This document shows positions 8,901 to 52,669 of a DNA stretch of 64,000 bases, one piece after another. The translations under genes were made by a program, and so were the position numbers. The stretch is from a virus: IMG/VR virus record IMGVR_UViG_3300044691_000477, positions 1 through 64,000 of that record; one strand, 5' to 3'. The notes under the pieces are model-generated. The model worked only from the letters and a program-made list of their open reading frames with translations. It was not told the DNA's origin and ran no database searches. The number at the start of each line of letters is the position of its first letter. Position 1 is the first letter of the stretch.

Positions 8901-8909
8901 GCCACCTCC

Positions 8910-8938
8910 TTGTACATCCGTGTTGCGGTTGGTACGAT
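8910..8938 (+). promoter_or_regulatory. Sigma-70-like promoter TTGTAC-N17-TACGAT for the plus-strand moron
   Basis: Read directly. The -10 element ends 30 nt before ATG 8969, and AGGAGC lies in between. Confidence 0.5.
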
Positions 8939-8968: not shown

Positions 8969-9253
8969 ATGAAGTACAGCCAGGACTACTGGGACTGGTA
9001 CAACTCCCTCGGCCCCATGGACCAGTACTTCGCCGATCTGCGGCGTGATGGCGATTGGTTCATGAAGTGGCTTATCAACCCCGCTTGCTGGCTGTTCGGC
9101 CTCTTCGTGGTCCTGATCATCGTGGCGTCGTTGTTCGGCAGCAGCGGACCATTCGCGCACCAGTCATGCCAGACCCTGCCGACGACGGATGGCAATACAG
9201 GCGTGACCTCCACTTACACATCCTGTGAATCAGTTGGCCCGTTCTGGTGGTAG
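8969..9253 (+). CDS. Small membrane protein (moron, opposite strand to tail genes)
   Basis: 94 aa with one hydrophobic helix (CWLFGLFVVLIIVASLFG). It has its own promoter and RBS and is wedged between the tape measure and the chaperone extension. Confidence 0.7.
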   Translation: MKYSQDYWDWYNSLGPMDQYFADLRRDGDWFMKWLINPACWLFGLFVVLIIVASLFGSSGPFAHQSCQTLPTTDGNTGVTSTYTSCESVGPFWW

Positions 9254-11017: not shown

Positions 11018-12922
11018 TCAGGCGTTGGTGGTGTCGGACACTGTGGAACCGCCGTCGAACTGGGCGATCTGGATCACCACGAACTCGGCGGGACGCTGAA
11101 GCGCGAGGCCGACCTCGAGGTGCACCTCCCCCTGCTCGATGGTGGCGGCGGTGTTGTTCTCGGCATCGCTCTTGACGTAGTACGCCTGCTCTGCCGTGGC
11201 CCCCTTCAGACCACCCGCGGTGTAGAGCTCCCGGCAGATCTTGTCGGCGATGTCATCGAGCAGCGACCACAGGAACGAGTCGTTGTTCTCGAAGGGCGCG
11301 AACGAGGTTGCGTCGAGCAGCTCCGCGCGCACCTGGATGAGCGTGCGGCGAGGAGCGATGTAGCGGGTGATGAAGTTGGTCTTGCCGGTGCGGGCGCCGA
11401 AGATGCAGAAGCCCTTGTTGGGCACCAGCTTCACGGCGTTGACTCCCGCATCGTTGAGGCGGTCGAGCTGCGGGTTGCGCAGGTCGGCTGCCGGGTCGAG
11501 GGCGACGACCTGGGTGAGCAGCCCGTCGATGGTGCCGGCGGGGGACTTGAAGACACCTCGGGAGGCGTCAGTGGCCATGTACCGCCCGACCACCAGCGGC
11601 CCGACAGGCACGAGCTTGGTGCTACCAGCCACCGAGTTGGACGGGTCGGCGATGACCACGGGCGGGTAGTACGTCGCCCAGTAGTCCGACACTGGGTAGG
11701 TCTTGACCTGGGTGATGGCGTCGTCTGCCACTTCGCCGGGAGAGGTGTCGATGACCAGGAAGACGTCACCGCGTCCCTGCTCGTTGTTGTCCTGCCTGGT
11801 GCGACTCGGGTCGGTGTAGTCCACCAAGGCCGTGATGACGTCGGTCTCGAAGACGCCAGGCAGGTTCAGCACGAAGGGCTGAGTGATCACGTCGAGCGCG
11901 TACACCGAGTCCATCATCTCGCTGGTCGTGGGGGTCGACCCGTCGACACCACCCGTCAACTTGGACCCACCGGCCACTGACGAGGCCACCAGCACGTCTC
12001 CGGTGGCGAAGACGTAGCCACTGTGCACTGCGGCCTCGATGTAGTTGGACGGGCTGATGGCGCTGTTGAGGACACCGATGACGTAGCGCGGGTCTGCCGG
12101 GTTCAGAGACAGATCCGTCCACCGCTCCACGATCTGGGCGTTGGTGAGCACCGTGACGCCGACAGGAACATCACGGATGACGAGGTTGAAGCGCGCTGGG
12201 TCGGTGGCCTCGAGGATCTCGACGTAGAGGCGGTTGCCCCAGACGCCGGGGTTCTTGGCCTTGAAGTCGATGGCGCTGGCCCCGACATCGCTCCCCTGGG
12301 TGCTGGTGCTGACCGTGACGTCAGGAGACGTACCACCCGTCAGCCCGGTCGCGTCCGTGGTGATGGGCGGGACGTTGGTGGCTGCGTAGGTGCCCTGGAA
12401 GGCGGTGCTGTACGGACCGCCTCCTGATCCTGTGACCACGACATCGCCAGGTGCGATGTCGCTCAGCGCGACGAGAGCTGCCTGCACTGCCGACGCGGTG
12501 GCGTTGTAGGCGATGTCCGCTGTGGTCTGACCGGCGAACGTCAGGGTGTAGGTACCGCCCGTCGGCCCCCCTGTGATGGTGATGATCTGGACCTCGTTGT
12601 TCGAGGTCGAGGTGGACGGGTCGAGCGCGAACGGCAGGTTCGCCTTCGCGGCTCCTGCCCCGACCGCGCGGTTGACGTAGATGTCACGGGCGCCGGCAGA
12701 CAGGGCGTTGTAGATGGACTGCAGCAGGTTGTCCGCAGCAGCCACGCCAGTCAGCTTCCCAAACTGCTTGAGCGCGTCGCTCCAGCTCGAGATGAGCGTC
12801 GGCACGACTGGACCGCGAGGTGCGGTCCCGACGAGCGCAGCGACTGCCACTGTCGTGTTGATGGGTGTCGTCGTGGCCAGCAGCTCCTCATCGACGTACT
12901 GGCCTGGGCGGTGGAACGTCAT
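11018..12922 (-). CDS. Contractile tail sheath protein
   Basis: 634 aa. C-terminal GVNAVKLVPNKGFCIFGARTGK..YIAPRRTLI is sheath-like. A tube gene follows. Confidence 0.9.
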   Translation of the reverse strand: MTFHRPGQYVDEELLATTTPINTTVAVAALVGTAPRGPVVPTLISSWSDALKQFGKLTGVAAADNLLQSIYNALSAGARDIYVNRAVGAGAAKANLPFALDPSTSTSNNEVQIITITGGPTGGTYTLTFAGQTTADIAYNATASAVQAALVALSDIAPGDVVVTGSGGGPYSTAFQGTYAATNVPPITTDATGLTGGTSPDVTVSTSTQGSDVGASAIDFKAKNPGVWGNRLYVEILEATDPARFNLVIRDVPVGVTVLTNAQIVERWTDLSLNPADPRYVIGVLNSAISPSNYIEAAVHSGYVFATGDVLVASSVAGGSKLTGGVDGSTPTTSEMMDSVYALDVITQPFVLNLPGVFETDVITALVDYTDPSRTRQDNNEQGRGDVFLVIDTSPGEVADDAITQVKTYPVSDYWATYYPPVVIADPSNSVAGSTKLVPVGPLVVGRYMATDASRGVFKSPAGTIDGLLTQVVALDPAADLRNPQLDRLNDAGVNAVKLVPNKGFCIFGARTGKTNFITRYIAPRRTLIQVRAELLDATSFAPFENNDSFLWSLLDDIADKICRELYTAGGLKGATAEQAYYVKSDAENNTAATIEQGEVHLEVGLALQRPAEFVVIQIAQFDGGSTVSDTTNA

Positions 12923-14864: not shown

Positions 14865-14915
14865 AGGATAGCACCATGCAACGTTGTTGTACAAGTACGT
14901 TGCACCTGCTACATT
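14865..14915. promoter_or_regulatory. Back-to-back promoters sharing palindromic -35 TTGTACAA, embedded in a 28-bp near-palindrome
   Basis: Plus strand: TTGTAC(14887..92)-N17-TACATT(14910..15). Minus strand: TTGTAC(14894..89)-N18-TATCCT(14870..65). Arms TGCAACGT/ACGTTGCA lie at 14877..84 and 14897..904. Confidence 0.55.
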
Positions 14916-14956
14916 TCACTGCATCGGAGCACAGCGACTACTGGGAGCAGTACGAC

Positions 14957-15343
14957 ATGCGCAACATCGAGTCCAGCCAAATCGACGGCCCCTTCGACCT
15001 TCAACCGAAGAACGACGGCGAACTCACCTTCACGCTCGCCCTCAGACTCTCCAGCAACCACGGCTACGCGACGCTGGTCGACGGCCACTCGCACGCAGGG
15101 CGTCGCTTCAAGGTCAAGCACATCGACGTGCTGGTCACCGTCGTTGCTGGCAAGGTTGAGTACTACATCCGCTCCTCCGCGAGCGGCCCCCTCATCCGCA
15201 AGGATGGCAGCGAGGGCATGATCATCACCACGCATGGTGTCTTCCTCACCGCCGTACAGACCGAAGCTGTGAAGCGCGCCGCTCTCGCCGCCTACACCAC
15301 GGCACTAGAGCAAGCGGCGGTGTACGCGCTCACCCAGGAGTAA
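14957..15343 (+). CDS. Hypothetical protein (cassette gene B)
   Basis: The last 128 codons of track ORF 14249..15343 start at ATG 14957. The upstream part of that ORF is antisense to a real gene. A hairpin follows. Confidence 0.75.
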   Translation: MRNIESSQIDGPFDLQPKNDGELTFTLALRLSSNHGYATLVDGHSHAGRRFKVKHIDVLVTVVAGKVEYYIRSSASGPLIRKDGSEGMIITTHGVFLTAVQTEAVKRAALAAYTTALEQAAVYALTQE

Positions 15344-26489: not shown

Positions 26490-28079
26490 TCAGCGGCTGC
26501 CTGCGTAGAGGAAGTTGTTCCCGCTCTGTGCCTCGGGCATCGAGATCTCCCGCGTCATGTAGCAGGCAAGCGCGAGGGAGTCGGCGTAGTCGTCGTGCGC
26601 GTCGGCCTGGTCTGGTGCCGCCGCGAGCAGGTACTTGCCGCGGTACTCCTTCTCGAGGTCGGTCATCTGCTGCACGAAGCGCTGGTAGGTCTTCTTCCTG
26701 CGCACCCGCGCGCCCGCCGGCCAGCCGACAAGACCGAGGTTCATGACCTCCATCAGGTGCTTCCACCTGGCCGACTGCGACGCCGGGTCGCTCATCAGCA
26801 TCTCGACCTGGGACCGCGGCATGAGCCGCTGCAGCCGATCGGCCACGACGTCGCCTACTCCCTGACCGTCGACCGCGACAGCCATCACGTCGTAGTGGCT
26901 GGCGAAGTCAACGATGCGCCCGTACTGCTCCTCCCAGCGGTCGCCGTGCAACTCGAGCCAGTTCAGGACGCGGTGGTCGTAGTAGCCGAACTCGTTAGGG
27001 TTGGCCCAGTCGACCCACAGCGCTGTGACAACGGTGGAGTCCTGCTTCCTGGCCGGGTCGACACCGAGGATGATGGGGCTGTTGTACCAGCGCTCGACCA
27101 CCTGCTGCATCGAGGTGTCGCCGAGTTCCTCGAGCCGCTCGGCGGTCGTGAACATGCCTCGCTCGAGCAGCCACTTCAGGGCATAGGACAGTGCGAACTC
27201 GTCGCTGTCCTCGCCGAGGCGTGACATCTCCTTGCGCACGAACTTCAGGTAGCGCGGGTTGTACTTGGCGCAGCTACGCCAGTCATGCTGGAAGTGGTTC
27301 TGCCGCGCGTTCTTCTTCGTCTGTCGGCGCTTGTTGAGCTGGATGGCCCGGTAGAACACTCCCTTGGTGGTGTCGGGGGTGCCCGTCATCACCGAGGTGG
27401 CGTTGTAGAAGGCGCCCATCGGCATGATGGACTTGTCGACCACCTTGTCATTGGCGCGCTGTGCCTCATCGATCACGATCAGGTGGTAGGACTTCGACTC
27501 GATCTGTGCCTTGGGGTTGGCGGTCTGCATACGGCAGATCGAGCCACTGACCCGCAGTCGCAGCAGTTTGCCGCCACCTTCCACCTTGTCATCGATCTCA
27601 GGATCAGCGAGCAGCTCGGCGGCGGTCTCGGACGTCAGCACCATCTGCACACGCTGGAACAGCGTCTCGGCCTGGCTCTCGACCGGCGCGAACATCCCGA
27701 CCCAGAAGCCGTTCTTGTACTGGCCGAACCAGACCGGCCACATCAGCGCGAGCTTGGGCATCAGAATCATGCAGGCCGCGATGACGTAGGCGATGGCTTG
27801 CGTCTTTCCCGACTGCCGACTGAACAGTGCGGTGATCTGGTCACCGTCGTTGAGCACGATGGACTCGACCACGCGGTACCCGAAGTCGGACTGGTACGGG
27901 AACAGCGGCTCGCCGGCGAGTTCGTCGGCAAACACCAGGATCTTGGTGACGATGTTGTGCACGAAGTCGCTGTCGTCAGGCGACAGCGCACGCTGCGCCT
28001 CGGCCTCCTCGATCTCCGAAACCGTCTCGTCGCGGTCGAAATCCAGGTCGAGGCCAAGCTCCTCAACGATGGCTGTCAC
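26490..28079 (-). CDS. Terminase large subunit
   Basis: 529 aa. Walker A FSRQSGKTQ, Walker B YHLIVIDEAQ, C-terminal nuclease-like GVDPARKQDSTVV..VAVDGQGVG..DDYADS. Confidence 0.9.
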   Translation of the reverse strand: MTAIVEELGLDLDFDRDETVSEIEEAEAQRALSPDDSDFVHNIVTKILVFADELAGEPLFPYQSDFGYRVVESIVLNDGDQITALFSRQSGKTQAIAYVIAACMILMPKLALMWPVWFGQYKNGFWVGMFAPVESQAETLFQRVQMVLTSETAAELLADPEIDDKVEGGGKLLRLRVSGSICRMQTANPKAQIESKSYHLIVIDEAQRANDKVVDKSIMPMGAFYNATSVMTGTPDTTKGVFYRAIQLNKRRQTKKNARQNHFQHDWRSCAKYNPRYLKFVRKEMSRLGEDSDEFALSYALKWLLERGMFTTAERLEELGDTSMQQVVERWYNSPIILGVDPARKQDSTVVTALWVDWANPNEFGYYDHRVLNWLELHGDRWEEQYGRIVDFASHYDVMAVAVDGQGVGDVVADRLQRLMPRSQVEMLMSDPASQSARWKHLMEVMNLGLVGWPAGARVRRKKTYQRFVQQMTDLEKEYRGKYLLAAAPDQADAHDDYADSLALACYMTREISMPEAQSGNNFLYAGSR

Positions 28080-28786: not shown

Positions 28787-29010
28787 CCGTTCAAAAAGTC
28801 TTGGAGGAGGATGGTGGGCTTCTGCTGGTGCGTGAGCACGATCCGCACGCTGATGAACTCGGTCTTGGCCGACTCAGCACCGACGTACTTCGCAAGATCG
28901 CGACGTGCCATGTCGCGTGCCTTGTTGGAGTCATAGGCGCGAATGACCCAGCCACGCGGCTCATCGTGGCCAACATTCTCGTTCTTCCGTTTCAGGACGA
29001 AGATCTGCAT
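28783..29010 (-). CDS. Hypothetical protein
   Basis: 75-aa ORF overlapping its neighbours. Confidence 0.6.
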   Translation of the reverse strand: MQIFVLKRKNENVGHDEPRGWVIRAYDSNKARDMARRDLAKYVGAESAKTEFISVRIVLTHQQKPTILLQDFLNG

Positions 29011-29744
29011 CAGATCACCGCTGCGTCGATGACCTCAGCACGGATGCCACGGTCATAGGTATCGACGCCCGTGTCGTCCTGGTCGCTGAAACCTGCGGAC
29101 CCACCGCTGCTCGACCAGACCTCGAGGCCGTTGTCGATGGCTGCGCGAACGATGTCGCTAGCCTCCTGCTCGTTGGCCCCGCCCGTGACCTTCACGGTCA
29201 ACGTGACGAGACGCTCGGTCGGTTCGGTCGCAGCGTTGGTGCGATGAGGAAAGACCTCGATGTTGTGGCCCTTGCGGTAGACGCACCCAACAACGGGACA
29301 CGGCTCGGTGCTGGTCTGGTCCTCGTCGGCGACCTGCTTGTACGACGGGACGATGGCCTCCAGCAGGTAGCGCCAGTTGATGCGCCCGCCTATGTCAGGC
29401 AAGATCAGCCGCAGGGTGTCGACACCGTGTACGAAGTAGTTGACCTCCCCCAGTCGAGCGGCCTTCTTGACACGCCACTGCTCGGGGACCTCTGCGTCGT
29501 CGTCGGGGTCACCGTAGTCTTCGCGGGTCTCGAGTTGCGCATCCTCACCCCCGTAGGAGACGACCTGCCACTGCCCAACCTCGGGGTGTCCGAGGTCGTT
29601 GTTGACGTAGATGGCGAGACCATCACCTCGTGCGTGTGCTCGCTGGCCAAGTTGCTCGACGGCGTTAAGCCAGTCGAGGTCGCCTGCCGCCGCATCGGCG
29701 GCTTTGGTGCGGAACGTGTTGATGTCCCAGACCTGGACGGTCAT
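29010..29744 (-). CDS. Hypothetical protein, first gene of the virion arm
   Basis: 244-aa ORF with GGAGCAC RBS and the conserved leader. Confidence 0.7.
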   Translation of the reverse strand: MTVQVWDINTFRTKAADAAAGDLDWLNAVEQLGQRAHARGDGLAIYVNNDLGHPEVGQWQVVSYGGEDAQLETREDYGDPDDDAEVPEQWRVKKAARLGEVNYFVHGVDTLRLILPDIGGRINWRYLLEAIVPSYKQVADEDQTSTEPCPVVGCVYRKGHNIEVFPHRTNAATEPTERLVTLTVKVTGGANEQEASDIVRAAIDNGLEVWSSSGGSAGFSDQDDTGVDTYDRGIRAEVIDAAVI

Positions 29745-29787
29745 GGTGTGCTCCTTGTCAGTGCTCCGAGTGGGTGGTGCGTTGACT

Positions 29788-29865
29788 ACGGTATCACCTA
29801 CGCAACCAGTATGTACAGCAGCGTTGCGTAGGTGCTATTCTAATTGCACTCGGAACACCTACGCA
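29788..29865. promoter_or_regulatory. Divergent promoter/operator region between the virion arm and the early arm
   Basis: Central palindrome TGTACA (29812..17) can serve as -35 for both strands (plus -10 TATTCT 29836..41; minus -10 TACCGT = 29793..88). The 10-mer CACCTACGCA occurs at 29795..804 and 29856..65, and inverted at 29825..34. Confidence 0.55.
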
Positions 29866-29878
29866 TCTGGAGCACATC

Positions 29879-30259
29879 ATGGGATCACTCGCTGCCGCTG
29901 ATTTCGCCAATCAGGTGAACGAGGGCAACATCCAGCTAAGGACCGCCATCTCGTGGCACCTGACCAGCAACCACTACCCGCCGCACCCGGCCTTCATGGT
30001 CGATCCCGTCGTCGCCGCAGTACTTCTCGCGCGCGACGAGGAGTGGGACACCGAGATTGACCTGCCGAAGGGCTGCGAGACGCACAACGCCCTCGTGCCG
30101 TACGGCCAGGAGCACTGCACCTTCGGCGAGTCCGACGAGGACAAGGCCGACTTCGGTGCCTGCGTGCTGGTGGCCGCTGTCGAGTGGCAGGACCGCACCG
30201 ACGGCAAGGCCAGCGTGAGCGACATCATCGAGTCCTTCCACCTCGACTCGTTCGTCTGA
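29879..30259 (+). CDS. Hypothetical protein
   Basis: 126-aa ORF with GGAGCAC RBS. Confidence 0.7.
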   Translation: MGSLAAADFANQVNEGNIQLRTAISWHLTSNHYPPHPAFMVDPVVAAVLLARDEEWDTEIDLPKGCETHNALVPYGQEHCTFGESDEDKADFGACVLVAAVEWQDRTDGKASVSDIIESFHLDSFV

Positions 30260-30263
30260 CGTC

Positions 30264-31304
30264 ATGCGCATCACCTACGTCAAGAAGAAGTTCACGCCCG
30301 CCCACCAGCAGGTGATCGACCGAGCCAACGAGATCTGCGAGGAGTACGCCGGCAGCGGGCTATCGCTGACGCTGCGTCAGCTCTACTACCAGTTCGTCGC
30401 CCGTGGTCTGCTGCCCAACCGTCAGGAGGAGTACAAGCGACTCGGTGGCATCGTCAACGACGCGCGACTCGCGGGTGAGATCGACTGGGAGTACTTGGTC
30501 GACCGCACACGCAACCTCGTGGCGCCGACAACATGGAGCAGCCCTGCTGCTCTCGTCAAGGCGGCTGCCGAGCAGTACCAGACTGATCTCTGGGCTGGGC
30601 AGCACCACCGGATAGAGGTCTGGATCGAGAAGGACGCCGGCATCGGTGTCATCGAGCGCGTCTGCAACGACAACCTTGTTCCCTACTTCTCCTGCCGCGG
30701 TTACACGTCGGCGAGTGAGTTGTGGAACGGAGCACAACGCATCGGCAACCACCTCTACCGGGGTGATCGGGTCACAGTGCTGCACGTCGGTGACCACGAC
30801 CCCAGCGGCCTGGACATGACGCGCGACATCAAGGAACGGCTCGCGCTGTTCCTGGCCAATGACTGGAACCGCAGTGGTGCGATGTTTGAGTACCTACCAC
30901 CTGTAGGAGTGAGCAACACCAACGAACGCATCCGCTCGAGCATGAGGGAGTGCATCCGGGCACACGGTGGTGAGATCAGCGAGCAGACACTGCCTTGGCG
31001 TGTGAAGCGTATCGCCCTGAACTACGACCAAGTGCAGCAGTACAACCCACCGCCGAACCCGGCCAAGACCACCGACGCGCGCTTCGTCCGCTACCGCGAG
31101 GAGACGGGCCTGAACGAGTCATGGGAACTCGATGCTCTCGACCCGACCGTCCTGCAGGCTCTCATCGACTCGGAGATCAATGCTGTCCGTAACGAGAGTG
31201 CCTGGGATGACGGCCTCGCCGCACTCGACCGCGACCAGCGCGTCCTGATGAACATCGCTGACAACTGGGATGCCGTACGTAATCAGTTCGGAGGATCGAC
31301 ATGA
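30264..31304 (+). CDS. TopoVI-A/Spo11-like protein (5Y-CAP + Toprim; 'Mini-A'-type)
   Basis: LTLRQLYYQFVARGL (catalytic-Tyr-type motif) and VLHVGDHDPSGLDM (Toprim DxD). No B-subunit gene is visible. Confidence 0.6.
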   Translation: MRITYVKKKFTPAHQQVIDRANEICEEYAGSGLSLTLRQLYYQFVARGLLPNRQEEYKRLGGIVNDARLAGEIDWEYLVDRTRNLVAPTTWSSPAALVKAAAEQYQTDLWAGQHHRIEVWIEKDAGIGVIERVCNDNLVPYFSCRGYTSASELWNGAQRIGNHLYRGDRVTVLHVGDHDPSGLDMTRDIKERLALFLANDWNRSGAMFEYLPPVGVSNTNERIRSSMRECIRAHGGEISEQTLPWRVKRIALNYDQVQQYNPPPNPAKTTDARFVRYREETGLNESWELDALDPTVLQALIDSEINAVRNESAWDDGLAALDRDQRVLMNIADNWDAVRNQFGGST

Positions 31305-32233
31305 GCAAGACCCTCGACCGCATCAGCAAGGTTCTCAACCAGGCTGAGAACGCAGGCACGCCAGAAGAGGCTGCGGTCTTCATGGAGAAGGCGCAGGAGT
31401 TGGCCTCGCTTGCGGCCATCGATCTGGCTGTGGCCCGTTCTCACACCGTCAACAAGGAGAAGCGGGAGGAGATCGAAAAGAACGTGGCTGTGTACGTGAA
31501 CTCCTACTCGCGCCGGGCCAACCGCGAGCACTTCATGGACCTGTTCCTCGCAATCGCAGGAACCAACGATCTGCAATGCACGATTGGCGGCAGCAGGTAC
31601 TACGCCTTCGCTACCGGCTTCCCCAGTGACATCGAGATCGCCAAGGCCCTGTTCGGTCAACTCTCCGTGCAGATGGTCAGCGACGCCGATGCCGCCCTGA
31701 AGCGCGGTGCCCACAAGACCGTCCGCCTGGTACCGAAGTACGAGCGCATCAAGCTCGACCCGGATGACCACTACTGGGATACGGACTGGAAGGGTCGCGA
31801 CATCTACCGGACGACTGAGAAAGTTCGCGTTCGTGACGAGAACGGAAACCCAGTGTGGGAGGACCAGGTGGTCAGCAAGGTTGATGGCCGCATCTACCGC
31901 GCCAACTTCTACGCTGGCTTCGTGGCCCGCACCAATAGCCGTCTGTGGGAGGCCAAGCAGCGCGCAGAGAAGGCAGCGGGTGCTGACGTCGAGAACAGCA
32001 GCACCGCTCTCGTACTTCGCGACAAGAAGCAGGAGGTGAAGAAGGCGTTCGAAGAGATTGAGGAGGAGTACAAGGTGCTCAACCACCGCGGCTTCAGCAG
32101 TTATGGGGGCGCTGAGGTAAGCACGCACTCGGTCGATGGATGGCAGCACGGCTCGGACGCCGCCGCCAAAGCAAAACTCGACGCTGACCCAGACAACAGC
32201 GTCGGGGCCACCGTCCGCCAGGAGTTGGCGTGA
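31301..32233 (+). CDS. DUF2786-like N-terminal domain protein
   Basis: LDRISKVLNQAENAGTPEEAAVFMEKAQELAS. 310 aa. Confidence 0.65.
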   Translation: MSKTLDRISKVLNQAENAGTPEEAAVFMEKAQELASLAAIDLAVARSHTVNKEKREEIEKNVAVYVNSYSRRANREHFMDLFLAIAGTNDLQCTIGGSRYYAFATGFPSDIEIAKALFGQLSVQMVSDADAALKRGAHKTVRLVPKYERIKLDPDDHYWDTDWKGRDIYRTTEKVRVRDENGNPVWEDQVVSKVDGRIYRANFYAGFVARTNSRLWEAKQRAEKAAGADVENSSTALVLRDKKQEVKKAFEEIEEEYKVLNHRGFSSYGGAEVSTHSVDGWQHGSDAAAKAKLDADPDNSVGATVRQELA

Positions 32234-32352
32234 CACTGCTTGGTCGACTGCTCTGCGCCGTCGGCCTGCACAACTGCAAGGGCACATCCGTGCCGCACAC
32301 CTACGCCTGCCGTCGGCCTGGCTGCAGCTTCATCACCGGAGGGCACGTATGA
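32230..32352 (+). CDS. Small Cys-rich protein (40 aa)
   Basis: Own translation VTLLGRLLCAVGLHNCKGTSVPHTYACRRPGCSFITGGHV. GTGA and ATGA coupling at both ends. Confidence 0.4.
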   Translation: MTLLGRLLCAVGLHNCKGTSVPHTYACRRPGCSFITGGHV

Positions 32353-32603
32353 CCCCGAGACCAGCACCACGCCCGAAGCAGGAAGAAGTGCCGATCCTGC
32401 GGAAGGTGCTGGCCAGGGTCGTGAAGGCCGATGACCTGGAGGTGCACACCTGCAAGGCAATGCTCGATGGCGTCACTGTCCTCGACATCCGGGACTACAT
32501 CCCCTCCACCGGACTCTACGGTCGCGGCACGACGCTGCCGTGGAACACCGAGACCATCAAGGTGCTGAAGGCCGCGATGATTGAGGCGGCGCGCGATGCG
32601 TGA
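32349..32603 (+). CDS. PC4/YdbC-like ssDNA-binding protein (tentative)
   Basis: ATG 32349 (GGAGGG RBS). EVHTCKAMLDGVTVLDIRDYIPSTGLYGRGTTLPWN resembles the PC4 fold pattern. Confidence 0.5.
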   Translation: MTPRPAPRPKQEEVPILRKVLARVVKADDLEVHTCKAMLDGVTVLDIRDYIPSTGLYGRGTTLPWNTETIKVLKAAMIEAARDA

Positions 32604-32835
32604 GCTCCGCTGTCAAGGCTGCGGTCGGCTGCTCGGCATGACGCCGCGCACCCAGGCCGTCCCGGCGCAGTGCCTGGACCCATTCTGCGCCCACACACCG
32701 GCCATCTCTGGCAACGAGGAGCGTGACGCGTTGATGGCATACCTGGTGAACGTCGAGGAGCGCACGGTGGCCAGCGTGGCGGACCTGTTCGACATCACGC
32801 GCCAGGGCGCCTCGAGAGCACTGGTGGGACGATGA
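32596..32835 (+). CDS. Zinc-ribbon + HTH small protein
   Basis: CQGCGR near the N-terminus; C-terminal TVASVADLFDITRQGASRAL is HTH-like. Confidence 0.55.
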   Translation: MRELRCQGCGRLLGMTPRTQAVPAQCLDPFCAHTPAISGNEERDALMAYLVNVEERTVASVADLFDITRQGASRALVGR

Positions 32836-33008
32836 GTGACCGTGAGGTGGAAAACCCAATGCCCCTCGATGACCGCTGCCAGGAGTGCCTGTGCCCGCTT
32901 TGCCGGTACGGATCGACCTGTCACGTCTGCCACGGCCAGGGCATCGGCCAGCAGGTTCGGAAGATCTTGACCGACGAGCAAGCAGGCGGTAGGAGCAGCG
33001 ATGAGTGA
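32832..33008 (+). CDS. Small Cys-rich protein (58 aa)
   Basis: Own translation MSDREVENPMPLDDRCQECLCPLCRYGSTCHVCHGQG... Coupled starts and stops. Confidence 0.45.
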   Translation: MSDREVENPMPLDDRCQECLCPLCRYGSTCHVCHGQGIGQQVRKILTDEQAGGRSSDE

Positions 33009-33204
33009 CGTTCACGCCGTCAGGCACCTCCACAGGGAGCGTGACGACATTGCCCTGCTGGAACGGCGGCTCAAGGCCGCTCGCGCTCGCAGGAAGGTAC
33101 TCATCGCCAAGTTGCGGTACGCCGGGTGGACGCTCCGACAGATCGAGCCGCACGCTGGGATCAGCAACGTGGCGATCAGCCAGCAGGAGCAGACCGATGT
33201 CTGA
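33001..33204 (+). CDS. HTH-containing small protein
   Basis: 67 aa. GWTLRQIEPHAGISNVAISQ is HTH-like. Confidence 0.6.
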   Translation: MSDVHAVRHLHRERDDIALLERRLKAARARRKVLIAKLRYAGWTLRQIEPHAGISNVAISQQEQTDV

Positions 33205-40350: not shown

Positions 40351-40537
40351 CAGGACGTCTTACGCAGCGACGGGGCGGGGGACCTTGGCGTCAGGGTGCT
40401 CGAGCAGGATCTCCTCGCAGACACTGCAGGGATCGAGCAGCACGACACCACGCTCGTCAAAGACGAGTCGCGCACCGTGCGGACAGAACTCCATGCCACA
40501 AGAATACCCAGGTTCGTAGCAGGTGCAACCCTGTTGT

Positions 40538-40723
40538 TCATTCGGGTTGCCTTGGACGCCACGCTTCGACCATCTCTCGGATGACGACTCCCCATCTCGA
40601 GGTGTGCCACCTGCAGGCAGCGCTCATGAACGTGCCGCCCCTCTGTACGTTGATAAGGCTCTCCACAGAGGAGTAGACGTAGGCACCGATGATCGCGTCG
40701 TTGTAGCAAAACTCGCACTTCAT
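40538..40723 (-). CDS. Cys-rich small protein, possibly the 5' part of a frame-broken gene
   Basis: ATG 40723 (MKCEFCYNDAIIG..). The +1 frame continues with NEQQGCTCYEPGYSCGMEFCPHG.. to TAA 40360 and has no start codon of its own before codon Met at 40497. Confidence 0.5.
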   Translation of the reverse strand: MKCEFCYNDAIIGAYVYSSVESLINVQRGGTFMSAACRWHTSRWGVVIREMVEAWRPRQPE

Positions 40724-40760: not shown

Positions 40761-42599
40761 TCAGAGCTCGATGGCATCTGCGAACACAGGATTGAGACCC
40801 CACCCTGCAGCGATCTCGAGCTTGCGAAGTTTGGACATCGACGCACTGATGGTGCTGCTCGATGGTGAGTAGCCACACGCCTCCGAAGCAATCGTGTTGT
40901 TGGTGAAGCCCGACGGTCCCTCCTGCTCGTAGATGTCGAGCAGGTGGGTCAGCAGCGCATTCTCGGTCTTGCCGAGTCGGGTCTGCCACCACTTCAGCAG
41001 CGCCGGGCCGCTCGGGAGTTCCTCGTACTCGCCGAGCGCTTCGACTCCTTCCGGGGTCGCCATGATGGGTCCTGAAAGCGTGACGTAGCCCATCTTGCGG
41101 AGCTTGGACAACGAGGCGCTGACGGTCGAACTCTTCGGCGAGTAGCCGGCCTGCATCGCGATCTGGCTCTGCGTACGAACACCGTGGGTGACCAGCACGG
41201 TCAGCACCGAACGCTCGGTCTTGCCGAGTTTCACGTCACTGTCGCCACTGCCTCGCGTGCGGGCGGGGGGTGAGGTGGGAAAGGGGTTGCGCTTCGCAAC
41301 GATGCCACCCAGCCGTCCACCCGCAACCTCGGCCACGTCCAGCAGTCGATCCATCTGCTGCTTCTGCCGGGAGGGGTCGATGCCGACGTTGAGCTTCTCG
41401 CCGGCGAACACCTTGTCCACGATGCTGAGTTGCCACGGCGCCAGCACGACCCCCAAGTCCTTGACGAAGGAGGAGAAGTCCTCCATGAAGCCCTTGAGCT
41501 CGCTGCGCACCTCCTCGACCGTCGGCAGATCAACGCAGTTGTCCTGGGAGTCGATGGCCTGCTCTGCGCTGGCCAACTCGGCCTCAGCCATCTGGGCGTG
41601 CTGCTCAGCCGCCTCAACCTGCTGCTGGAGCATTGCGACATCTCCCTGGAGGGCCTGAATGCGGCGCTTGAGTTCTCGCGGGTCGTTCTCCTTGGCTCGC
41701 TCGACGGTAGCGGCGATCTCGGCTCCGAGCGCGTCCAGGTCAACTTCAGTCGCCATCGTCGGGCTGACGGACCGCTTACCAGGTTCCGGGGTCTTGTGGC
41801 TGTCGAACGTCTCGCAGAGGTTGATGTGAACTCGCTGCAGCGTCTTCAGGAACGCCGGCGACCAGATCCATGCCTCGCCGACCTCTAGTTTGGGCAGCGA
41901 ACCGATGACGGTGGTGTTCTCGTCATCGGCGTTGACCTCGATCCACTCCTTCACCGCCTTGATGCTGCGGGTGCCGGTCATGCCGAGCAGGAAGACCGTC
42001 TCGCACAGCTCGAGCACGCTCTTGGCGATCTCCTGCGGTCGCTGGGTGATGACGGTCAGCCCGAGACCTCGCCCTCGCCCGCGCTTGGCGATGTCCTCCA
42101 TGGCTCCGAGCAGCCGGGCGGTGTCGGCGCTGGCCCGCTGCGGTATCAGCACGTCCGCCTCGTCAATGACGACCATGAGGCTCTCGCGGTTGCGGAAGTA
42201 GAGCCGCTCGGCGAAGTCGGTCGCGAAGCTGCGTGCCTTGGTCTTGGACATGTGGCTCATGTCGAGTACGCACGGGATGCGTCGGTCCACGATGAGGTCG
42301 GCCATCAGCGTGCCGGCTGTCGCCTCGAGCGGGACGTCGGCGTGGTCGCCGCCGAAGATGACGAAGGGGAGTCCTTTGCTCTTGCCGTCACGAGAGCTGC
42401 GCAGCCCCCACCAATCGCCTTTCACGTCGAGAACGACGACTGGCAGTTGCTGGTGGTAGAGCTGCTCCACGATGACGGTGGCTGTGTTGGACTTGCCCTT
42501 GCCCTTGTTCGCCAGGACGGCGAACGTTTCCGTCACTGCCTCCCGCGGCATGCTCAGGTCGGGGGCCAACACAATTCCCCTGCGCCGTCGAGTGGCCAT
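40761..42599 (-). CDS. HerA/FtsK-superfamily ATPase with C-terminal tandem winged-helix repeats
   Basis: ATG 42599. Walker A LANKGKGKSNTA, Walker B LMVVIDEADVL, LTVITQRPQEI. Duplicated GYSPKSSTVSASLSKLRKMGYV / GYSPSSSTISASMSKLRKLEIA. Confidence 0.75.
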   Translation of the reverse strand: MATRRRRGIVLAPDLSMPREAVTETFAVLANKGKGKSNTATVIVEQLYHQQLPVVVLDVKGDWWGLRSSRDGKSKGLPFVIFGGDHADVPLEATAGTLMADLIVDRRIPCVLDMSHMSKTKARSFATDFAERLYFRNRESLMVVIDEADVLIPQRASADTARLLGAMEDIAKRGRGRGLGLTVITQRPQEIAKSVLELCETVFLLGMTGTRSIKAVKEWIEVNADDENTTVIGSLPKLEVGEAWIWSPAFLKTLQRVHINLCETFDSHKTPEPGKRSVSPTMATEVDLDALGAEIAATVERAKENDPRELKRRIQALQGDVAMLQQQVEAAEQHAQMAEAELASAEQAIDSQDNCVDLPTVEEVRSELKGFMEDFSSFVKDLGVVLAPWQLSIVDKVFAGEKLNVGIDPSRQKQQMDRLLDVAEVAGGRLGGIVAKRNPFPTSPPARTRGSGDSDVKLGKTERSVLTVLVTHGVRTQSQIAMQAGYSPKSSTVSASLSKLRKMGYVTLSGPIMATPEGVEALGEYEELPSGPALLKWWQTRLGKTENALLTHLLDIYEQEGPSGFTNNTIASEACGYSPSSSTISASMSKLRKLEIAAGWGLNPVFADAIEL

Positions 42600-42913
42600 C
42601 ACCGACCACGCTTCGGGATGATGATGGTCTCGTGGTTCGCGCTGTAGGGACTGACTCGCCCCGCCATGCTGTCGTCCTGTCCGGTGTAGTCGTCGGTCCA
42701 GAGCAGATGCAGATGCACCTCGGCGTACTGAGCGTCCCACCACTCGAGGGTCTTAAGCCGCTCGATCAGACCCTCGACCCTGCCGTCGTTCGAAATCTTG
42801 CCCTCGAAGTAGTAGCCGTAGGTCACCTCGGGGATCGGCACGAAGCCAAGGTCGGCAAGCTCGTCAGGTCCCCTGTGCACGGTCATCATGACGATGCTGG
42901 TCACGTTGCTCAT
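42599..42913 (-). CDS. Hypothetical protein adjacent to the HerA-like gene (TGATG overlap)
   Basis: ATG 42913. 104 aa. Confidence 0.65.
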   Translation of the reverse strand: MSNVTSIVMMTVHRGPDELADLGFVPIPEVTYGYYFEGKISNDGRVEGLIERLKTLEWWDAQYAEVHLHLLWTDDYTGQDDSMAGRVSPYSANHETIIIPKRGR

Positions 42914-43385: not shown

Positions 43386-43422
43386 GGTGCTCCAGGTTCT
43401 GTGTTCCGAGTGGGTGGTGCCT

Positions 43423-51029: not shown

Positions 51030-51093
51030 GTCCGTGCTCCAGGTGAGTGATCCGAAGGGCGCACCGTACCAACTACCGCGACGCCGCGCTGCC

Positions 51094-51776: not shown

Positions 51777-52669
51777 CCGCGGCAGTTCTGGCTGCGCATG
51801 CGCGCCTTCCCCCGAACTCCCGCAACCGTTTATTGCCGCAATATCCGTCACACATCCGCATAAGCGCATGGACGCATGCCCTCACCTCGACCAGGCGCGC
51901 CACTGCCTCGAATATCCCCGTGATATCACCCCAATTTTCGCCACTGCCTTGTGGGCATGAGCGCCAGGAATCGGTGTGGTCGGGCCGCTCCAGCCGGTGG
52001 AAACGGTTAAGGGTAGGGGGGGGTCCTATTCACGCATGCTCATGGATATTCAGCCTATTTGCTGCGTGCCGGCGTGCATTCCATCTCAGCATGTGGACCA
52101 ATATTCAGCCTATTTAATCCCAGCATGTAGACCATTTATTGCTGTGTTTTATGCAGCCGTGCCACTGTATTTATGCATGGCTGCGCGCGAGTTCGACAGG
52201 CCCGGGCCGGGGCGTCAGAAGGCACGTGGTGTTGTTATGAAGGCACGTGGTGTTGTTACGTATGTTGGTACGTATGTTGGTACGCACCTAGGTGATGCTG
52301 AGCGTGCTGGGCATGTAAATGCAGGCAATAAACATGCACGTGTGAGCGTGTGAGCACAATGAATGTGCTGGTGCGTGCACTGGTGTGAGCGTGAGACAAC
52401 GGTGTTGGTTCGTTGTGTTGTTGTCTCTCTCTTCTCTATGTGTTCATCGCTCTATCGAGCGTTCCTTCGGGCCGCGGATTGGTGCGAGCATGGGTGACCC
52501 GAGCGGTGGTGTGAGCGTGGGCTGGTGTGCACGCTCTACTTCGTACAGACGGGTGCTCTTCTTCCCCGGCCAGCGCGCGGTGCGTCCTTGTGCAACGTCA
52601 TGGTTCTTGGGGGCGCTACTCGCTACGCTGGTGCTTTCCTCTCGGGAGCACTACCTACTAGGAGCACAG
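51777..52669. repeat. Non-coding, locally low-GC, repeat-rich divergent intergenic region
   Basis: Direct and tandem repeats read directly; see the finding for coordinates. Track ORFs here translate the repeats and look non-protein-like. Confidence 0.7.

Follow-up and report, generated by a model that had tools for sequence, protein, structure and literature searches.

The 134-bp spacer at 29745..29878 of the viral record IMGVR_UViG_3300044691_000477, of which positions 1 to 64,000 were analysed (this stretch of 64,000 nt is called the window hereafter, and all coordinates refer to it), is a phage divergent promoter/operator region that is ordinary in kind and a useful regulatory lead. It lies between the genes 29010..29744(-) and 29879..30259(+) and combines a 26-bp dyad, GCAAC-N5-TGTACA-N5-GTTGC, with three copies of a 10-bp repeat, CACCTACGCA. 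Our reading is that the dyad forms an operator/promoter core found throughout the clade of this phage, and that the triple would be a three-site repressor operator specific to one lineage. In our judgement this combined reading has an even chance of being right, the evidence being good for the promoters and the dyad and moderate for the operator role of the triple.

A preliminary description of the region had proposed a divergent control region with a -10 box on each strand at 18 nt from a central TGTACA. Its coordinates for the 134-bp spacer, for the repeat (29795 on the plus, 29825 on the minus and 29856 on the plus strand) and for the hexamer (29812..29817) are all exact, and both TGTACA-N18-TATTCT on the plus strand and TGTACA-N18-TACCGT on the minus strand are present. 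Both -10 boxes also carry a TGn extension that the description did not mention, which gives the extended -10 elements TGcTATTCT of the plus-strand promoter P_R (29833..29841) and TGaTACCGT of the minus-strand promoter P_L (29788..29796), from which we infer transcription starts at ~29848 and ~29781, respectively. The -10 hexamers themselves (29788..29793 and 29836..29841) are ~40 bp apart and the predicted starts ~67 bp apart. The TGn extensions, the conservation in relatives and the rarity of such boxes elsewhere in the window all back the named -10 boxes and, with them, the proposed divergent control region.

Relatives were found via homologues of the first plus-strand gene and of the large terminase (TerL), and have the same divergent gene pair; their contigs are numbered with L below. 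Exactly one TAnnnT follows the central hexamer in 23 of the 26 half-sites from the window and the relatives, the distance being 16-19 nt in 21 of them and 12 nt in the other 2. The TGn extension is present in 16 of these 23. The two 12-nt cases, in L027 and L033, belong to independent lineages and are each 6 nt off their nearest relatives. The -10 of P_R reads TAGTCT in L036, the TAnnnT pattern thus being retained, and TACCGT of P_L is conserved in L036 and L027. On both strands of the window TGnTAnnnT occurs only 6 times, as compared with 23 +/- 4.6 expected, and all six boxes stand upstream of genes, five of them at dyad sites (8930, 14865, 14907, 29788 and 29833) and the sixth at 51063..51071(-). 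This depletion suggests selection against spurious promoters inside genes, and together with the exclusive placement at promoters it is good evidence for recognition of the TGnTAnnnT box by the host polymerase. The other six TGTACA of the window have no box of this kind, and the combination TTGACN-N16-18-TAnnnT is absent throughout the window. P_R and P_L are predicted on good evidence to be extended -10 promoters of the host housekeeping-sigma type. A TTGACT at 29782 was considered as a -35 and rejected, being wrongly placed relative to any -10 and not retained in L036.

The predicted 5' leaders carry a further shared element. In most cases a conserved CGGAGCAC motif of the form (c)atCGGA(G/A)CAC stands 8-9 nt beyond the -10 and is followed by a Shine-Dalgarno sequence (SD), GGAGCA(C). 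The P_L leader has the motif CACCACCCACTCGGAGCAC at 29761..29779(-) and the SD GGAGCAC at 29748..29754, ahead of the gene start at 29744, and the P_R leader (29849..29875, +) consists of the CTCGGAACAC motif, the third copy of the repeat and the SD GGAGCAC at 29869..29875, ahead of the ATG at 29879. The motif probably marks the 5' end of the mRNA, for which its position is only suggestive. A 19-mer, CACCACCCACTCGGA(G/A)CAC, is common to 29761..29779 and 43392..43410(-) with a single A/G difference, and a scan of IMG/VR with this 19-mer returned 0 matches. The form C(A/T/C)CGGA(G/A)CAC is seen at 14922(+), 14859(-), 29849(+), 29770(-), 43410(-), 44261(+) and 51071(-) as well as in relatives, and this SD-like motif also stands at the predicted 5' ends of promoters that have no dyad.

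The dyad in the spacer (site B, 29802..29827, with its central TGTACA at the would-be -35 position of both promoters) is not the only one in the window, where four sites are found at <=1 mismatch against 0.00 expected. An exact copy, site A (14878..14903), separates the tail operon (start 14830, -) from the gene 14957..15343(+) and is flanked by extended -10 boxes on both sides, at 14907..14915(+) and 14865..14873(-). At site C (8901..8926) the left arm is GCCAC and coincides in part with the start codon and SD of the tape-measure gene; the only promoter of the site is on the plus strand, with TGgTACGAT at 8930..8938, for the gene 8969..9253. Site D (40525..40550) has the centre TGTTCA with both arms intact, a gene downstream in the minus direction only (start 40494) and the -10-like box TGcTACGAA. 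The half-element TGTACA-N5-GTTGC has five exact matches in the window, always at dyad sites. With four sites in all, the dyad marks the promoter regions of the head and tail operons, of one further operon and of two small genes on the opposite strand, and its symmetry overlaps promoter elements of both directions, at ~-46..-21 of each promoter. As it marks the head and the tail operon, it is probably the switch for virion-gene expression.

The genes next to sites A and C, 14957..15343(+) (128 aa) and 8969..9253(+) (94 aa, membrane-like), are single small genes opposing the tail and head operons. Each has a dyad promoter of its own, which means that the virion operons are interrupted by transcription units on the opposite strand. 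Directly upstream of site D lies 40761..42743(-), a 660-aa ATPase of the HerA/DUF87 type with two tandem C-terminal winged-helix repeats (ArsR/TrmB-like).

The preliminary description had already recognised that the plan of site B recurs at 14877..14904, and this is correct. It had also stated that the arms of the two sites differ, and had suggested that two different site-specific regulators act on a shared promoter design, reading ACGTTGCA at site A and CACCTACGCA at site B, so that only the TGTACA layout would be common to both. The arms indeed diverge beyond the shared core (TGCAACGT at A, TATCACCTACGCAAC at B), and the third repeat copy is present at B only. However, GCAAC and GTTGC are common to both arms at identical spacing, so that sites A and B share the full frame GCAAC-N5-TGTACA-N5-GTTGC, which the description had not seen, and only the spacer beyond GTTGC is different; this spacer, between GTTGC and the -10, varies in every lineage. 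The same 26-bp dyad, moreover, is common to the sites at 8901 and 40525 and to all close relatives. Site A shows no motif of its own beyond TGCAACGT, while ACGTTGCA, with 5 occurrences found and 2.3 expected, is not enriched and takes five of its eight bases from the shared core. Separate regulators for A and B are therefore quite unlikely in our view, and the evidence does not support two of them acting on one design.

Conservation among relatives refers to the junction at site B, as a search of IMG/VR with the gene flanking site A gave no homologue. Besides the window, the dyad is present in the homologous spacer of eight relatives (L026, L031, L033, L034, L035, L036, L038 and L087). It is exact in L031/L032, L033, L035, L038 and L087, and also in L036/L037, which belong to the same lineage as the window. 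One arm reads ATTGC in L026, both arms are altered in mirror fashion in L034 (GCAAG...CTTGC), and L027 has lost one arm. A scan of 413 kb from more distant loci outside the clade gave 0 matches to the dyad, and neither the dyad nor the motif is present at any of the loci with remote flanking-gene homologues (L001-L025, L039-L042, L049-L086, L088). The cultured phage BRock has neither the divergent junction nor a dyad upstream of its TerL gene. An exact dyad scan of IMG/VR yielded 5 matches, all in unrelated contexts.

The three blocks of the dyad are one helical turn apart and lie on one face of the DNA. At sites C and D there is a gene in one direction only, yet both arms are kept, which argues that the whole dyad is the unit and not two independent half-promoters. 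A quite different role was considered for this symmetry, namely that the region acts through nucleic-acid structure, with alternative hairpins (repeat copies 1:2 versus 2:3) serving as an attenuator, or a cruciform serving in replication or packaging. Copies 1 and 2 can indeed pair into a DNA hairpin of 12 bp, with -12.4 kcal/mol and z -3.9, and copies 2 and 3 are perfectly complementary. Both predicted starts, however, lie outside copies 1 and 2, so that neither mRNA would contain them, and the RNA fold of the region is unremarkable (z -1.5). No Rfam family was matched except for a chance miRNA hit (E 0.67), and there is no terminator-like site. At site C, in L035 and in L038 no stable hairpin forms (z about 0), so that the conserved dyad occurs without the fold both in relatives and in the window itself. 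A structural role of the repeats appears extremely unlikely on these grounds, and a hairpin or cruciform as a conserved feature was rejected. Three conserved blocks at one-turn spacing without a fold point to protein recognition rather than to nucleic-acid structure; with the blocks on one face, no need for a hairpin and the dyad whole even at one-direction sites, it is presumably the binding site of a dimeric regulator.

Retention of both arms at sites C and D would also be accounted for if the dyad were a palindromic promoter for an extracytoplasmic function (ECF)-like sigma factor, with GCAAC as -35 and GTTGC as -10 16 nt on, firing both ways. Superimposed on the housekeeping-type promoters, it would give two temporal classes from one site. 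Promoters of ECF sigma factors of the SigH/SigR/SigE type have an AAC-containing -35, a GTT or CGT -10 and a spacer of 16-18 nt, which GCAAC-N16-GTTGC resembles, and in a structural model the helix-turn-helix (HTH) of the small protein 32596..32835, described below, superposes on sigma region 4. Such a promoter would leave unexplained why TGTACA is invariant in what would be its spacer, and why TGnTAnnnT is conserved here and depleted elsewhere. Furthermore, a scan of window proteins, which covered a subset of the window ORFs (open reading frames), turned up no sigma-factor gene. Nor would elements that are read by two different sigma domains be expected to change symmetrically, as the arms do in L034. 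We therefore regard an ECF-type promoter as very unlikely.

The second component, the 10-bp repeat, is present three times in the spacer. Copy 1 (29795..29804, or 29795..29806 with the extension AC, +) extends the left dyad arm outward and fills the P_L spacer at ~-14..-23, and copy 2 (29825..29834, or 29823..29834 with the extension, -) likewise extends the right arm and fills the P_R spacer at ~-14..-23. Copy 3 (29856..29865, +) lies in the predicted P_R leader at ~+9..+18 and overlaps the end of the leader motif CTCGGAACAC. That each promoter spacer contains the motif while the third copy sits in the predicted 5' untranslated region had been described before, as had the spacing of about 30-31 bp; the centres are in fact 30 and 31 bp apart, close to three helical turns. 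The inverted arms of copies 1 and 2, which lie within a 40-bp palindrome, match exactly over 12 nt (CACCTACGCAAC) and at 93% over 15 nt, whereas CACCTACGCA(AC) as a unit is asymmetric and not self-complementary.

The motif-frequency search that the preliminary description had called for gave 4 exact copies of CACCTACGCA in the window versus 0.12 expected, a number reached in 0/100 shuffles. None of 2000 shuffles of the spacer contained any 10-mer in three copies, and in other 134-nt stretches of the window triple repeats never exceed k=8. The triple is not due to chance. The fourth exact copy (12383..12392, -), which is new here, lies within the tail-sheath gene and is probably a chance occurrence, and a further 9.7 kb outside the window hold 0 copies. 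A copy with one mismatch, CACCTACGCC at 32298, was discarded since it falls within a translationally coupled 40-aa ORF and is probably also due to chance. This ORF, 32230..32352(+), is unannotated and cysteine-rich and is coupled on both sides through GTGA and ATGA overlaps.

The anatomy of the copies leads to the rival that has to be taken most seriously, which is that the promoters and the dyad are real but that no dedicated CACCTACGCA binder exists and the identical 10-mers are a tolerated by-product without function. On the promoter strand the sequence of copies 1 and 2 is TGC + GTAGG + TG, where TGC ends the conserved GTTGC and the terminal TG supplies the TGn of the extended -10, so that only GTAGG and the equal length are specific to the lineage. 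Copy 3 consists of CAC, the end of the leader motif CGGAACAC, followed by CTACGCA, and relatives have similar leaders at the same place, CATCTAC in L027 and CACCTAC in L031. Half of each copy would thus be fixed by promoter or leader, and quasi-palindrome correction, through template switching or gene conversion, could have homogenised the rest; the copy pairs 1/2 and 2/3, being short-distance inverted repeats, are a substrate for it. The other lineages, moreover, apparently function without the triple. Even with a fixed leader copy, however, both spacers must gain GTAGG at equal length, for which the chance is roughly 1e-3 in one event, so that three-way identity is unlikely to arise without selection; under a sceptical model, in which the leader copy is fixed and the arms are made uniform by one event, the free-base match has a probability of roughly 1e-3 to 1e-2. 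Symmetric spacers are found in no other lineage, none of the 9 differences between the window and L036 touches the copies, and the regular 30/31-bp phasing would be left unexplained. We consider a functionless by-product a real if minor possibility.

The comparison with L036 deserves some attention, as the window and L036/L037 have the triple and all other lineages examined lack it. L036/L037 are 96.5-99% identical to the window over the shared DNA, and in the spacer 9 of the 134 positions differ between the window and L036, none of them in the 40-bp palindrome or in copy 3, which lends weak support to a constraint on the triple (p about 0.015). Within the plus-strand operon, window 30264..32200 corresponds to L036 3348..3742 as a mosaic module swap: L036 lacks the gene for a 346-aa 'topoisomerase-like' protein (phrog_6247) and the DUF2786 gene and has two small ORFs instead.

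Two small proteins of the plus-strand operon had been put forward in the preliminary description as HTH proteins to be examined for binding. For 32596..32835(+) this assignment agrees with the structural model, in which a zinc-ribbon-like hairpin is followed by three helices that form a C-terminal HTH. The protein has four conserved cysteines and a near-constant TRQGAAR (recognition) helix, and is conserved in every lineage whose contig reaches the region, accompanying the dyad throughout. In superposition its C-terminal ~35-40 residues match HTHs from KorA, DeoR/LsrR and sigma region 4 with an rmsd (root-mean-square deviation) of 0.6-0.9 A. The orphan protein 33001..33204(+) is coiled-coil/HTH-like, with scores below thresholds. 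The structure predicted from its single sequence shows a long helix only, with low confidence in the HTH part. Its remote relatives form a small family with a long helix and an HTH-like segment, with near-threshold matches to HTH_3 and HTH_23. Together with 32832..33008 it occurs in the window and L036 only, and among viral contigs with 33001-like proteins there was one unrelated contig, which has neither dyad nor repeats. Because of these patterns of co-occurrence, which for the triple amount to one lineage, 32596..32835 is our candidate dyad-binding protein and 33001..33204 the candidate that may bind the triple.

Taken together, these elements suggest the following mechanism. P_R would drive the genes from 29879 onward and P_L the terminase/head operon from 29744, as two back-to-back promoters in mirror symmetry around the dyad, whose centre lies ~33 bp upstream of either predicted start. 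The dyad would be the site of a dimeric phage-encoded regulator, possibly 32596..32835, which could be an activator or a repressor and would sit over the -35 position of both promoters and co-regulate both directions. Presence of the same dyad in both directions argues for such co-regulation, unless the CACCTACGCA sites separate the directions. The triple would then provide operators, present at site B only, for a second small DNA-binding protein on three sites of one DNA face. Once bound, this protein would block the putative TGn/-10 contacts and early elongation of RNA polymerase at both promoters. The effect would be strongest at P_R, since two CACCTACGCA sites flank its -10 and start, and if the protein is 33001..33204, which is encoded in the P_R operon, the direction of regulation that we infer is a feedback shut-off of P_R. 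A bolder extension would be that the dimer bound at ~-33 replaces or redirects the contact of sigma region 4 with the -35 (sigma appropriation) and activates both directions together, with the dyad as master 'late' signal for all virion operons of this uncultivated actinophage clade and 33001..33204 uncoupling the directions of site B through the three CACCTACGCA sites; we consider this extension unlikely.

Several points weigh against the combined reading of a clade-wide core with an added three-site operator. A scan with the E. coli-type consensus finds no promoter in the spacer, and TGTACA matches TTGACA at 4/6 positions only. In the left promoter of L027 and the right promoter of L033 the distance from TGTACA to the -10 is 12 nt, versus 16-19 nt in 21/23, so that TGTACA cannot be the -35 there. 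As to the triple, five of the ten bases in copies 1 and 2 are promoter elements, while in copy 3 CAC is leader motif and CTAC recurs in the leaders of relatives; with half of each copy being promoter or leader sequence, the triple amounts to fewer than 3 x 10 nt of independent information. That it is conserved and that it goes with 33001..33204 is one observation, in a single lineage, and the motif counts cover the 64-kb window and the further 9.7 kb, i.e. ~74 kb of a genome of ~108 kb. For the candidate proteins, the Foldseek E-values of 32596..32835 are 0.1-1 and thus non-significant, its Pfam matches are sub-threshold, and the HTH calls for 33001..33204 are also below the family thresholds.

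What emerges is a testable regulatory code for an uncultivated clade, made up of a virion-promoter dyad, purged extended -10 boxes and a conserved 5' leader. If a dyad-binding factor is confirmed, the region would offer a compact bidirectional promoter/operator module for actinobacterial synthetic biology and a handle on temporal gene classes in metagenomic phages. The triple with its orphan HTH protein, if the proposal is true, would be a small natural case of a new operator/regulator pair grafted onto an existing promoter.

The window is phage DNA with a GC content of 63.7% and matches a Logan contig at 100% identity over the overlap, and megablast and blastn against a phage collection returned no nucleotide match to known phages. 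Its TerL (26490..28079, -) is ~50% identical to that of the Streptomyces phage BRock group, the nearest cultured relatives, which are virulent myoviruses (PMC7453282). The source phage belongs to an uncultivated high-GC myovirus clade distantly related to BRock and looks like a virulent myovirus. On the minus strand, from 29744 down to ~2100, head genes are followed by tail genes, including the tail-sheath gene 11018..12922(-), whereas the plus strand from 29879 to ~34160 holds ~10 genes, most of them small. A divergent non-coding gap of 515 nt at 51870..52385 is dense with direct repeats, among them an exact 20-mer GAAGGCACGTGGTGTTGTTA twice with a spacing of 21 nt, TGTTG(T/G)TACG(T/C)A four times in tandem, ATATTCAGCCTATTT twice, a 23-mer twice and GTGTGAGCGTG three times. 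This gap is iteron-like and may be a replication origin or the real early control region.

Among known systems, the lambda OR region has three operators between the divergent promoters PRM and PR, which are 17-bp pseudo-palindromes bound by dimers, with CI and Cro encoded by the flanking genes. As there, three copies of a putative operator in a divergent control region overlap promoter elements here, but the unit is asymmetric, the spacing is 30-31 bp and neither flanking gene (29010..29744 or 29879..30259) encodes a recognisable DNA-binding domain, Pfam and PHROG giving no match of that kind. Cluster A mycobacteriophages, which are temperate and have an immunity repressor, carry tens of stoperators per genome, oriented with transcription (PMC9283540, PMC6550527). 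Like these sites, CACCTACGCA is a short asymmetric exact repeat in an actinophage with copies in both promoter and transcribed DNA, which would fit a repressor that binds as a monomer and acts by promoter occlusion and as a roadblock. Unlike stoperators, there are three clustered copies and one stray copy in ~74 kb, in mixed orientation (+, -, +) and in what is apparently a virulent myovirus. In bacterial promoters that are bidirectional through symmetry, the -10 elements coincide on opposite strands and the starts are roughly 18 bp apart (bioRxiv 10.1101/2020.01.31.928960; PMC12825309). Element symmetry serves divergent transcription in that case as well, but in our spacer the -10 boxes are ~40 bp apart and the symmetric part is in the -35 region. 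The spacer is accordingly neither a lambda-type operator nor a bidirectional promoter with a symmetric -10, and its repeat has neither the copy number nor the orientation of stoperators.

Closer parallels are found in dyad operators that lie over closely spaced divergent promoters, such as E. coli bioO, bound by BirA, and Tn10 tetO, bound by TetR. A single bound protein governs both transcripts there, as is proposed here. As in these, a long dyad between divergent genes overlaps promoter elements of both directions; unlike them, the present three-block 26-bp element is reused at four phage promoter regions, and no homology to BirA or TetR is seen. The late promoters of phage Mu carry a dyad for the C protein, and phi29 has p4 sites between its divergent early A2b and late A3 promoters. 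Our element differs from both in sequence, spacing and host clade and in being centred at ~-33 for both directions, and no protein homologous to C, Mor or p4 came to light. What it has in common with Mu and phi29 is that a small set of promoters for virion genes shares a dyad site at or next to a weak -35, which here is putative; the phi29 regulator, once bound, has opposite effects on the two divergent promoters.

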